From Microbotryum violaceum (lineage: Eukaryota): DNA of 64,000 nucleotides. A model generated the notes under the pieces. That model searched no databases. It saw nothing but the letters and a program-made list of their open reading frames with translations, and was not told where the DNA came from. The stretch lies in contig CDLV01000008.1 of assembly GCA_001244265.2 (NCBI GenBank), positions 1,488,001-1,552,000 on the forward strand, written 5' to 3'. The translations under genes were made by a program, and so were the position numbers. Position 1 is the first letter of the stretch. The number at the start of each line of letters is the position of its first letter. This document shows, piece after piece, positions 4,293-18,826 of the stretch.

Positions 4293-4564
4293 TTTTAGCA
4301 CATCTGAGGCCCGAGGCACGAGGTACGTAAGTACGAGAGCCGAAGATGGTAGTAAAGATAGTTGTGGTATATTGCAAGACTGACCTGAGGCCCAAAGCAC
4401 GAGGTACGTAAGTACGAGAGCCGAAGATGGTAGTAAAGATACTTGGAGAAGAGAGAGAAGAGCCAAGTGCGTGCGCACTAGGGAGGCTAGGGGCGCGCGG
4501 CTAATATCAACAACTAGATACTAATCTATTCTAAGTGGGAGGAAACAGTAATACCCTTTTGACA
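4293..4564 (-). repeat. Copia-A 3' LTR (272 bp, two internal repeat units)
   Basis: Matches 14313-14503 plus an extra 81-bp block (4304-4384). Confidence 0.95.
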
Positions 4565-4578
4565 CCCCCCCCGTGCTG

Positions 4579-7500
4579 TCATACCACTGTACCCCGTAAA
4601 CCCAAGTTTTCCCAATGGAAGAGGAACGGTTTGGGACCCAAGGCCTTGGTGAAGATGTTGGCAAACATGTCAGCGGTGGCAATGTAAACGACGTTGATCT
4701 CCTTCTCTGCGACGCGTTTGCGGACGTAATGCTTGGAGATGCGCACATGACGAGACCCTTGGTGGTTGGTTGGGTGCTGAGCAAGGGCGAGAGATCCTTG
4801 GTTGTCGCCGTAGATGACAACAGGGCCCGGGACGGGATGACCAAGTTCGGCCAGAAGCTCGCTGAGGTGGATGGCGTCACCACTTGCATATGATAGGGAG
4901 AGGTATTCGGCATCGGTGGTAGACCTGGCAACTCGGTGCTCGCGCTTCAAGCACCAAGCAATGGCAGCTCCTGAGTAGATGAACGCGTAGCCCATGGTCG
5001 AACGCGAGGTGGTCAAACAGGCACCCCAATTTGCGTCCGAATACCCATGGAATGTCACGTTGTTTTTGCGATAAGTGAGGCCCAAGTCCAGTGTGGCTTT
5101 GATGTACCGGAGGACCTGCATGATAGCCGTCCAATGCGCAGGGCTGGGTTGTTGGGAGAAGCGAGCAAGGTAGGCGACAACATAAGCGATATTGGGCCTG
5201 GTCCCAACCGCTGCGTACATCAACGACCCGGTGGCTTGCAAGTAGCGGGTGTGATCCTGAGGCGTTGCGGACGAGTCTTGGAAATCAAGGACCACACCTG
5301 GTTGCATTGGGATGCTGGATGGCTTCGCGTTGCCGAGTCGGAACTTGTCCAGCAGGTCGCGAAGATAGCGCTCCTGAGAGAGCGTGATGGAGCCATCTTG
5401 TCCGCGCTTCACTTGAATGCCCAGGATGTACTCAGTGGGGCCGAGACGCTTGATCCTGTATATAAGTTCCAATGCATTGAGCACTCGATTGATCTCGGCA
5501 ACGGAGGGTCCAACCAACAGCAAGTCATCGACATATAGGGCGATGTAATGCGAGTGCCCGTCGTGGTCACGGCGGTAAATGCAGATGTCGGATTTTGTGG
5601 GGATGTAGCCGAGCGAACAAAGAGTCGAGTCTATCTCCGCATTCCAGATTGTGCCGGCCTGGCAAAGGCCGTAGATCGACTTCGATAGTTTGAGAATTTT
5701 GCCAGGGAGGTTGATACCTTGGGGAACGCGCATGTAGAGGGGCTTGTCCAGCTTGCAATGCAAGTATGCCTTGTTGACGTCGGCTTGATGGACGTGGTAA
5801 CCGTTTGCGGCGGCGAGAGCAATGAGTGCGCAAATGGAGGTGAATTTGACGACAGGAGCGTAGTTCTTCTCGAAATCCAAACCGGGACGTTGTGAACATC
5901 CATGAGCTACTAGTCGCGCTTTGTGGTCGGTGATATCTCCATGCTGGTTTTGCTTGGTCTGGAATACCCACCCCAATTGCAGAAGGATTTTGCCCGAAGG
6001 GAGGTCACAAGATTCGATGATTTCAAACACTTCATACTCGTTGAGAAGCAAATTGAACTCGTTGCGGGCGGGAGGGTGCCAGACCTCCTCTTGGCCCGTT
6101 CGGATAACGTCCCCCCAATTTGCCGGATCACAAACCATGGCTAAGTCGTGCTCAGCAAAGCCTTCTGTGGTCACTGCGAACGCCAGGATAAGGTTTTTGA
6201 AGGTGTTTGTGGGACCATCGGGGCCACTGTCGAGTTGCTCCTTCGCGATCATGGTCGGGACAAGTTGGCGACGAGTGCGCAGACCCTCGATGATGTTACG
6301 CGGGTCGACTTCGCCGTACTTGCCCGGATCAGGACCCACTCTCGCCAGATTGCCGTATTCCCACACCGGCTTGACTTTGGCAGGCGGTTCAGGAACTTAC
6401 TCCGGCGGCGGCAGGACTTCGGCGGCATTGGTTGCGTCGCTGCGGACAGAGGTGGCTTCATCATCCGGTGCCGGAAGTTCGTCATTCGGCGGCGGGAGCT
6501 GATTCGGCGTCGCGCGTGGCCCCTCGGGTTGCAGCATAGGCTGAGCGATCGGGCGGTAACCCGGAATAGACGGAACTGTCGCGCGTTTGGGCATGGAGAG
6601 GAAGGGGAATTTGGTCTCCACAAATTTGACGTCGCAGCTCAGGCTGACGCGCATGGAGGTGGGGTCAAGGAGCTAATACGCTTTGGAATGACGATTGTAG
6701 CCGACAAAAATGAGAGGTATGCCCTTCGGATCGACTTTGTCGCATCGGTGACCCGGGACGGTAGCCCAGGCGCGGCATCCGAAAGCTCAGAGAGCCGTCA
6801 CAAGCGGAGCGGTACCTGACCAACAATGATTAGGAACTCCCCCCTTGAGGGCCGCATGAGATGATAGGTTTTTGGCGTGGATATAACACACGGCCGCTTC
6901 ATCCCAACACAAATATGGTAGGCCCAAGTGCGATAGGAGGGCGAGAGTGCCTTTGATGATGGATCTGTTGGCGCGTTCGGCCCAACCGTTCTGCTCAGGC
7001 GTGTATAGAATGATCAATTCGCAACAGATCCCATGGGCTTCACAATACCCGTTGAAAGCGCTCGAGATGTATTTGCCTCCGTTGTCTGATCATAGGGTTT
7101 TCAAACGGTGACCGGTGGCATTCTCGATTTCCAACAGCCAGTCCTTGAACGTCGGCAGCACGTTGCTCTTGTGGCTGATCAGGTACACCCAAGTCTTCCT
7201 CGAGTAATCATTGATGAACGTGACAAGGTAACGGAAGTGATTGATAGATTCCTCTGGGAACGACAGGATATCCGAGTGCACCAAGGCGAGGGGTTCGGCC
7301 GCGTGAGACAACAACGAGGGGAAAAGTGACCGATGGGCTTTGGAGGCTAGGTAGGCATTGCATGTGAACTCTACACACTCGGAGTCACTATAGGTCCAAT
7401 CCAAACCCTTCACCTGACCGGATGCCGCCAGCCTTTTAATGGCCTGGATAGGGGCATGGCCGTAACGGCAATGAAGGGTAAGTAAAGGGGGCCTAGTGGA

Positions 7501-17329: not shown

Positions 17330-17714
17330 GCCGAGCACGTAACGCGGACTCCAACGAGCGGTGTTGATTGGACTCAGAGGTGGCTTGCACGCGGATACTA
17401 TCTAAGGCTCTGGTCTCGTTCACTCTCTCCTTCTTCTTTAACACACACTCAATATCTATCTCGCCCATTTGCCTGCTACAAGTTGATTGACCTTGGCGAT
17501 ACTCTATCTCACAATAGGACATCTATCAACGCCGTGTAGCTACAGCGAATCTTCATTCATTCATTGGTACTCCAAGTCCAAATCCACAACAGGGAGCAAA
17601 GATACTTGAAAACCAGGCAAGAGCGCCTAGGAAAAAAAAAGGGACAATATACAAAAAGTCACAAACGGGAACACCGAGAAAGGAAAATACTAAAACAAGG
17701 GGTCTTGGTAATTA
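17330..17714 (-). mobile_element. Diverged 3' UTR fragment of LINE family F
   Basis: gccgagcac.taacgcggactccaacg and gggagcaaagatact.gaaaaccaggcaagagcgcctag match 25734-25900. Confidence 0.8.
17362..17591 (+). repeat. Solo LTR (single-unit relative of 18452-18826)
   Basis: TGTTG...CAACA ends; shares gattgacctt...ctatctcacaatag; absent from the F copy at 25.7 kb; no TSD seen. Confidence 0.7.
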
Positions 17715-18451
17715 TTTTTTTTGTATGAAACTCATTGCTAATTTGCAAGACGAGAAAACCCCCTACGGAACTAAGGGAGATACTGCCCAGTATGCACGAT
17801 GATGACCACAACCGCCGCTTGATGCGTTGTAACTAGCAAGACAGACCAACCCGATAGATACATCCGAGTTCAAGTCCCCCCCACCCACGGTTGCTCCCTC
17901 CCAGAGACGAATGAAAGGAAGATTGAAGATAGTACACAAGGAATCAGGAAACGATGGAGGAATTGTTGGTGGTGGTACATGTGTTGTACAGGCGAATCGG
18001 ATCATAGTTGTACAGTTGAACCTTCTTCAATCTTTTGACTTCAGCCCCCCCCTGAGACCGCCATACTCCTTGAAGCCCCTTAATTCTTTGAGACGCGTCG
18101 AACAAGGCCTCCGATGGCACAAACATTCTGCTCAATCCGATCACATGGTCCAAAGGGGGGATATAACCCCCTGCGACCGCAGCAATCACATACCCCTTGT
18201 ACCCGTCTGCGCTGGGATCTCCACCGCGGATTCCAAACCCCTTTTCGGTTACCAAAGTCGGCCCCCCCTCGCGACCGCACGACCCCAGATCACCCCTATT
18301 CAATGACTGCAACTGCGAAACAGGCCTACTTCGCACAAAAACACACAATCCAGAGATTTTCGGGGAAAGTCACGGAGCATGTGACAGTCCATTGGACACG
18401 CCTCGGTCTGCAGCGCGGGCGGGTGGCCGACAACACCGGCGCGCGGCTGGA

Positions 18452-18826
18452 TGTTGTGGGAAATTAGTGGGGTCTGCGGTCCAGAGGGACTTATGGTCTT
18501 AGCAGTGGCGCGGGCGCGCGGGTGTTGTGCGGGGACCGGCAGAGGCGGCTGGTTGTTTACATGAGATTGCGTCTTTTTGGCCTAGCTGTTTTTCTCTCTT
18601 CTCCACCACGCACTCGATATCACATCTCGCCTAGTCGCTCTGTTACAGTCGATTGACCTTTAGCGACCCACTATCTCACAATAGGTTAGTTGAAATACAT
18701 TACTACGCACTTGATATCACATCTTGCCTAGTCGCTCTGTTACAGTCGATTGACCTTTAGCGACCCACTATCTCACAATAGGTCATCTATCGACGTCACG
18801 TAACTAGAGACGCTCCTACAATAACA
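18452..18826 (+). repeat. Solo LTR inserted in the LINE D1 3' UTR
   Basis: TGTT...AACA ends; TSD CTGGA at 18447-18451 and 18827-18831; absent from D2 and D3; internal duplication. Confidence 0.93.

Follow-up and report, generated by a model that had tools for sequence, protein, structure and literature searches.

Reverse transcription of a spliced RNA is expected to strip a retrotransposon of its introns. In Cryptococcus, a basidiomycete, taking introns out strongly lowers mRNA accumulation for most of the genes tested (PMC3744415; this and the other published sources are cited from excerpts). Ogre, EVADE and BARE are long terminal repeat (LTR) retrotransposons, Ty1/copia elements included, with functional internal introns that lie in the coding body, give a subgenomic gag RNA and survive via an unspliced template; none is described inside an LTR in the excerpts concerned (PMC12786077, PMC3735527). 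Penelope-like elements carry a 75-bp intron 46 bp downstream of the site at which transcription starts (TSS), within a terminal regulatory region, which is retained through retrotransposition and whose deletion abolishes reporter protein expression, not RNA (PMC2377424). Tandem duplication of an AGGT segment is a known route to a new intron whose removal restores the old RNA (PMC3265369, PMC4974935). The present analysis concerns a group of LTRs in a 64,000-nucleotide stretch of the Microbotryum violaceum genome (assembly GCA_001244265.2, contig CDLV01000008.1, positions 1,488,001 to 1,552,000 of the forward strand; hereafter, the window), in which a segment of the LTR, the unit, is followed by a splice-donor-like sequence, a spacer and a second copy of the unit. 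On balance, with a likelihood slightly better than even, we read this feature as a short intron in the leader, of the tandem-duplication kind and entirely contained in the LTR of a single basidiomycete Ty1/copia clade. The literature searched, which did not extend to subscription journals or supplementary files, contained no account of an LTR with an internal intron whose end copies the exon upstream of it.

In foamy viruses and human T-lymphotropic virus 1, a splice donor lies within R, the repeated region of the LTR. As in retroviruses, where it couples to the choice of the 3' end, a U1-type donor would lie near the cap in an LTR-derived leader; in contrast to the Microbotryum layout, retroviral donors use distant acceptors, unspliced RNA serves as the template and no exon copy precedes the U5 region (PMC12789967). 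The layout shares with the AGGT-duplication introns an exon end that is repeated at the 3' end of the intron, the donor coming from the first copy and the acceptor from the second, but here the segment lies in an LTR and resembles R (plus U5), its copies are identical where the units are otherwise unalignable, and the intron is a candidate (PMC3265369, PMC4974935). Penelope-like elements belong to another retroelement class, without LTRs or strong-stop replication, and a copy of the first exon in the intron is not described in the excerpt available (PMC2377424). The Microbotryum layout is real as a feature of the sequence and unproven as a mechanism.

Repeated units were located by Tandem Repeats Finder and self-BLAST, and one order was common to every LTR: a U3 region with GCGCGC-type motifs, a pyrimidine tract, unit 1, spacer, unit 2 and a short end stretch. 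In the 3' LTR of the element Copia-A (4293..4564, minus strand), unit 1 (4385-4441) is followed by a spacer starting GTCAGT (4361-4384), unit 2 (4304-4360) and 11 nt to the LTR end (4293-4303), defining a candidate intron of 81 nt (4304-4384, GTCAGT...CAG). LTR-3 lies on the plus strand and is cut in two by the insertion of Copia-A; its start (4264..4287), which by eye resembles that of LTR17, is separated from the rest (14509..14834, resuming after the target-site duplication, TSD), where unit 1 (14652-14725), a spacer starting GTTAGT (14726-14738), unit 2 (14739-14812) and 22 nt at the end give a candidate of 87 nt (14726-14812, GTTAGT...TAG). LTR-4 (18452..18826, plus strand) is a solo LTR flanked by the TSD CTGGA (18447-18451 and 18827-18831), with unit 1 at 18608-18684, a spacer starting GTTAGT at 18685-18704, unit 2 at 18705-18781, 45 nt to its end and a candidate of 97 nt (18685-18781, GTTAGT...TAG).

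Copia-B, also on the minus strand, has a more elaborate arrangement. Its 5' LTR (13644..14047) holds unit 1 (13808-13870), a 70-nt segment (13738-13807, GTGAGT...TAG), a 7-nt linker (13731-13737), unit 2 (13668-13730) and 24 nt at the end, before a primer-binding site (PBS) at 13633-13643; the candidate intron is either the 70 nt of 13738-13807 or the 140 nt of 13668-13807. The 3' LTR (8800..9273) holds three units (9034-9096, 8894-8956 and 8824-8886), one copy of the 70-nt segment (8964-9033) and two of the linker (8957-8963 and 8887-8893). Single-unit forms account for three of the eight LTR copies in the window: the 5' LTR of Copia-A (14313..14503, minus strand; unit 14324-14380, no spacer, PBS GGTTATGAGCC at 14302-14312), a 5'-truncated second copy of LTR-3 (39411..39644, minus strand; no spacer), and LTR17 (17362..17591, plus strand), a relative of LTR-4 with its unit at about 17443-17517. 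The four GT...AG intervals, the one in the 3' LTR of Copia-B opening with GTGAGT at 9033, had been picked out by the first-pass annotation together with the repetition of the pre-donor unit at the 3' end of each interval and the three single-unit forms, and all were verified; the LTR that it placed at 14518-14834 does contain two units, but is only the 3' part of the LTR split by Copia-A, whose start is at 4264-4287.

The layout is far from chance. The motif YAGGTNAGY occurs 12 times on both strands of the window, compared with 5.01 ± 2.22 in 100 shuffled sequences, none of which reached 12, and five of these matches (4379, 9028, 13802, 14723 and 18682) fall exactly on the boundary between unit 1 and the spacer in the five multi-unit LTR copies. 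Two of the other seven are antisense in the Copia-B 70-nt segment, one is in Copia-B pol, two are in a duplicated segment and two in host DNA. Among antisense donor-like motifs, CAGGTAAGC was noted in the Copia-B 70-nt segment (8978-8986 and 13752-13760, plus strand) and GTAAGT in each Copia-A and Copia-B unit.

Every unit 1 ends in YAG/GTNAGY, the donors being CAG/GTGAGT, CAG/GTCAGT, TAG/GTTAGT and, in a related metagenomic element described below (L001), CAG/GTAAGC. G1, T2 and G5 of the donor hexamer are constant across all the variants seen, with variable letters at positions 3 and 4; in another strain (X10), two more forms of the Copia-A LTR keep GT..GT with other letters at those two positions, read on the element strand. 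A junction alignment of Copia-A, LTR-3, LTR-4 and L001 showed the columns AGGT.AG and TG.AAT to be invariant. GT...AG borders with a 5' splice-site consensus, as looked for in an intron, are thus conserved across relatives. The repeated segment was found both before the donor and at the 3' end of the interval in all five families (four from the window, plus L001), and the letters at the end of unit 2 read AG/GT in LTR-3, LTR-4 and Copia-B and AG/AT in Copia-A and L001. The candidates are 62-97 nt long (70 or 140 nt in Copia-B), in keeping with the length of the host introns predicted in the window, which are about 56-76 nt long with GTGAGT or GTGAAT donors. A yTRAy branch motif is present in the L001, LTR-3 and LTR-4 candidates, with CTGAC located 15 nt upstream of the AG in L001 and 40 nt upstream of it in LTR-3.

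One feature of fungal promoters is a run of pyrimidines shortly before the TSS. Of the 20 nt that precede unit 1, 15-18 were pyrimidines in all seven LTR copies examined, a set without the Copia-B 3' LTR and the second LTR-3 copy, whereas 5.8% of the 20-mers in the window have at least 15. The repeat starts directly after this tract and ends exactly at AG/GT, and it is plausible that the tract marks the TSS. GCGCGC-type blocks lie upstream of the pyrimidine tract in every LTR family, L001 included (for example at 4470-4500, 9110-9150, 14525-14545 and 18505-18525, and at 395-450 in L001), and may be a shared promoter element.

The window families were described by the first-pass annotation as four unrelated ones, a claim that did not survive comparison: a PBS type and a spacer motif are common to them, and LTR-3, LTR17 and LTR-4 resemble one another at the start and have LTR termini in common. 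The annotation saw no obvious common sequence among the units; between families their identity is 36-56%, a level reached by shuffled units (50 ± 3%, maximum 59%), and the LTR17 and LTR-4 units are 77-79% identical. The spacers of Copia-A, LTR-3 and LTR-4 share AG/GTYRGT followed within 0-8 nt by TGMAATA; AGGTYRGT-N(0-8)-TGMAATA had three matches in the window, all at spacer starts, against 0.01 expected. A one-unit form of LTR-4 is present on contigs from two other strains (X18 and X13), and in X18 the letters after the LTR are a GGTTATGAG-type PBS, which identifies LTR-4 as a copia LTR as well. Judged by their common PBS type, pyrimidine tract and spacer motif, the families are LTRs of one Ty1/copia clade in Microbotryum silenes-dioicae. 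The host is assigned to this species through a protein encoded in the window that has 100% identity to one listed under that name by NCBI.

The clade extends to an environmental relative. A search of metagenome contigs with an alignment of the Copia-A and Copia-B reverse transcriptases (RTs) returned two loci, just one of them with an LTR: L001, a contig of 5565 bases at 60% RT identity. The copia element on it is intact, with a gag-pol frame of 1497 aa and 99-100% identity between the LTR parts. Its LTR (128-565) contains a stretch rich in pyrimidines, then a unit of 34 nt (461-494), a spacer of 28 nt (starting GTAAGC and holding TGCAAT), an identical unit (523-556) ending in CAG, and 9 nt, giving a candidate intron of 62 nt; the PBS GGTTATGAGCC follows directly (566-576). 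A search with the L001 polyprotein gave five matches, with no named close relative among them, and these carry the same Pfam set as Copia-B. A search of metagenome contigs with the Copia-B gag-integrase region gave no match, and no relatives were found in viral contigs or in contigs of prokaryote genomes. At both of its ends the L001 contig (1-5565) has the end of pol together with the LTR, repeated with a period of about 5063, as expected of LTR-sharing tandem copies or of a circular or multi-copy assembly.

The two unit copies evolve in concert. Within a single LTR the units are 96% (Copia-A), 100% (Copia-B), 91% (LTR-3), 97% (LTR-4) and 100% (L001) identical, and all five Copia-B units are identical, as are all three L001 units. 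The Copia-A 5' unit matches unit 2 of the 3' LTR at 100%, the four preceding bases included, and unit 1 at 96%; the unit of the second LTR-3 copy is 88% identical to LTR-3 unit 2 and 81% to unit 1. By eye, the spacer and the stretch after unit 2 (U5) are not alike. Since the units are identical while the spacer and U5 differ, they are not simply recent duplicates, and something keeps copying one unit onto the other. The differences within old copies look private: both of those in LTR-4 (18615/18712 and 18628/18725) and one of the two in Copia-A (4385-4441 compared with 4304-4360) are TCG to TTG changes. TCG is the specific target of hypermutation resembling repeat-induced point mutation (RIP) in Microbotryum. 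These changes fit the RIP-like hypermutation and frequent CpG transitions reported for Microbotryum transposable elements (PMC4469406).

In the reading favoured here, the LTR would run from U3 through the pyrimidine tract, unit 1, spacer and unit 2 to a very short U5 (9-45 nt) and a GGTTATGAGCC-type PBS. Unit 1 is most likely both the first exon and the R region, with transcription from its first bases; the conserved U1-type donor would open the spacer and the YAG at the end of unit 2 would serve as acceptor, and splicing would yield precisely the leader of a single-unit LTR. The layout would be ancestral to the clade and the single-unit LTRs derived losses. The segment that is duplicated resembles R together with U5, which is what strong-stop DNA copies, and by eye the spacers faintly resemble LTR ends. 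Copying linked to reverse transcription would keep the units identical, given that minus-strand strong-stop DNA would end in the complement of the unit and could land on either copy.

For the TSS, the splicing, the poly(A) site and the template RNA, all of which we infer, three regimes were considered. In one, the template is unspliced RNA and the whole unit-spacer-unit block acts as R, which would need nothing special and would bring no homogenisation per cycle. In another, proposed by the first-pass annotation, the 5' end of the RNA is spliced and the 3' end unspliced, with transfer onto unit 2; the packaged RNA would have unit 1 joined to U5 at its 5' end and would end, at its unspliced 3' end, in or just after unit 2. 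Strong-stop DNA ending in the complement of unit 1 would then land on the terminal unit 2 and copy spacer, unit 1 and U3, each cycle rebuilding the intron and overwriting unit 2 with unit 1. This regime accounts for a repeat that is equal to the first exon, for identical copies in young elements and for a short U5, and a strand-transfer model predicts the concerted evolution observed; it also demands that the 3' copy of the intron escape splicing. Use of the alternative acceptor of the 70-nt segment would give exactly the three-unit LTR of Copia-B. The third regime has no splicing. A mixture appears most likely, in which unspliced RNA would reproduce the LTR conventionally, whereas spliced RNA would lose the intron on landing on unit 1 and rebuild it on landing on unit 2. 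The first two regimes taken together are slightly favoured, while the second as the main route, that is, a spliced-leader strand transfer regenerating the intron in each cycle, is a tentative proposal that we regard as doubtful.

Several points weigh against a leader intron. Unit 2 being a copy of unit 1, the AG at its end is already given by the donor's exonic AG and is no independent evidence of an acceptor. AGs also occur inside the LTR-4, L001 and Copia-B candidates, and the yTRAy branch motif is absent from those of Copia-A and Copia-B, which have only a CTTAC-type yTnAy. Families that share ancestry represent one inherited design and not four or five independent origins, and all the support for the candidate intron comes from DNA sequence. 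With three of the eight window LTRs in single-unit form, and one such form preceding a PBS in other strains, the elements may be able to do without the intron. Repeat instability by itself acts on the unit arrays: in both complete elements the 5' LTR is one unit short of the 3' LTR (one and two units in Copia-A, two and three in Copia-B), and since a single cDNA gives rise to both LTRs of a new copy, this difference cannot be explained by splicing and needs slippage, for example after integration or in plus-strand strong-stop synthesis, the step that builds the 5' LTR. Regeneration in particular is opposed by the single unit of the Copia-A 5' LTR, which bears the letters of unit 2 and not of unit 1. 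The first-pass interpretation is upheld in part: in its favour are a layout that is real, non-random and conserved as far as L001, the constant letters of the donor, a repeat bounded by the pyrimidine tract and AG/GT, and the concerted evolution of the units, and it is weakened by the relatedness of the families, the dependent acceptor AG, the unequal 5' and 3' unit counts and the Copia-A 5' unit.

Variation among strains was followed in Logan contigs from four runs (X16, X18, X13 and X10), which were treated as DNA-like; depth was found in 30 of 30 bins for X13 and X10, and contigs of 4-7 kb from X13 and X18 extend beyond the LTR-4 site. One-unit DNA forms were detected for LTR-4 in X18 and X13 (a skip of 97 bases) and for LTR-3 in X16 (a skip of 89 bases), and two-unit Copia-A LTRs with other spacers in X10. 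A 70-base skip at 13734-13805 in X16, X13 and X10 was rejected as evidence of splicing, being equal to the junction of units 2 and 3 in the 3' LTR of the window; as a splice junction would be identical to the unit-2/U5 junction in DNA, such contigs cannot reveal splicing.

These one-unit and variant-spacer forms in X18, X13, X16 and X10 are what would be expected of an ordinary unstable tandem repeat in R/U5 without a role in splicing, its GT..GT and AG inherited from one ancestor and its units kept identical by template switching of the RT or by unequal exchange. The number of units, which ranges from one to three among copies and differs between the LTRs of one element, and the relatedness of all the families agree with such a repeat, and asymmetric LTRs have been reported in HIV-1 (human immunodeficiency virus 1) proviruses (PMC9278108). 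An inert repeat is nevertheless unlikely: between families the units are no more alike than shuffled sequence with the donor columns invariant, and positions 3 and 4 vary the way they do in genuine 5' splice sites; L001, distant as it is, retains the layout; and the sole three-unit LTR seen lacks the two full spacers expected from a simple misaligned transfer of unspliced R.

Somewhat less probable still is that the donor-like motif binds the U1 small nuclear ribonucleoprotein and the local AG is unused. The donor is indeed the best-conserved part of the layout, the acceptor is without independent support, and the conserved A/T-rich TGMAAT(A) adjoining the donor could function as a 3'-end signal; in HIV-1 and foamy viruses, U1 that has bound the major donor keeps the 5' poly(A) site suppressed (PMC12789967). 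Left unexplained by U1 binding are the identity of the units and the end of the repeat exactly at the donor, and because donor and motif occur in both LTRs, a further asymmetry would be required.

The remaining alternatives were rejected: recent independent duplications by the homologous spacers and by a spacer that differs from U5 while the units are identical, an introner-like insertion with target duplication by repeats of 34-77 nt compared with the 5-bp TSDs of the elements here, and an assembly artefact by the presence of the same forms in several independent assemblies. Repeats of 34-77 nt are far above the length expected for a transposon target duplication.

If the leader-intron reading is true, an LTR intron with a copy of its own upstream exon at its end would settle in a structurally simple way the conflict between the need for introns and their loss, and would be a new example of strand transfer shaping LTRs. 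With regeneration, an efficiently spliced intron could be carried without loss to reverse transcription, which would be useful in fungi where intronless RNAs accumulate poorly. Even with regeneration wrong, the conserved U1-type donor, the concerted evolution that an R-like repeat shows throughout a copia clade and the RNA species that is copied are testable in a tractable fungus.

The elements that carry these LTRs form an insertion nest, as judged from their ends, TSDs and self-BLAST: Copia-B is inserted in Copia-A, and Copia-A in LTR-3. Copia-A (4293..14503, minus strand) is a complete Ty1/copia element interrupted by Copia-B, with an LTR pair found by self-BLAST, an RVT_2 domain and the TSD GTCTG (4288-4292 and 14504-14508). 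Copia-B (8800..14047, minus strand) is a young Ty1/copia element within the gag region of Copia-A, with the TSD GGGGA (8795-8799 and 14048-14052) and LTRs that are 99.7% identical over 386 nt by self-BLAST; its domain order, with Pol_BBD, gag_pre-integrs, rve and SH3_retrovirus upstream of RVT_2, is that of Ty1/copia. Both elements have paired LTRs, a 5-bp TSD, a purine tract (a G run) ahead of the 3' LTR and, directly adjoining the 5' LTR, a GGTTATRAGCC-type PBS, which we take to match the anticodon stem-loop of the initiator tRNA-Met; no tRNA gene was present in the 64-kb window for comparison. Their RT-RNase H parts are 53% identical.

Copia-B is intact except for one in-frame stop (11172-11174, minus strand) between an 858-aa gag-protease-integrase frame and a 626-aa RT-RNase H frame. 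The PBS of Copia-A (14302-14312, minus strand) holds an ATG that shares its frame with the gag ATG some 60 nt downstream, within 14048-14312, with a stop just upstream in U5; the position of this ATG reads ATA in Copia-B, and in L001 the frame from the ATG closes after five codons.

Elsewhere in the window, two elements of the long interspersed nuclear element (LINE) type were found, one with endonuclease and RVT_1 domains and the other with RVT_1 and zf-RVT (19473-23714 and 32446-35403, both minus strand), along with a tandem duplication of about 1.8 kb (27130-30747). The repeats at 26883-27118 and 31792-32027, with a T run at the low-coordinate end and an A-rich stretch at the other, look like LINE ends and were rejected as LTRs; these long repeats being LINE 3' ends, the window holds no LTR of another superfamily that could serve as a control. 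LTR-3 and about 1 kb of non-coding DNA are duplicated in inverted orientation (14518-15789 and 38455-39644), next to a direct duplicate of the adjoining segment (16120-16883 and 39652-40415). Contigs from X13 and X10 join 14518 to 16115 on opposite strands, indicating that the second arrangement is present in other strains too.

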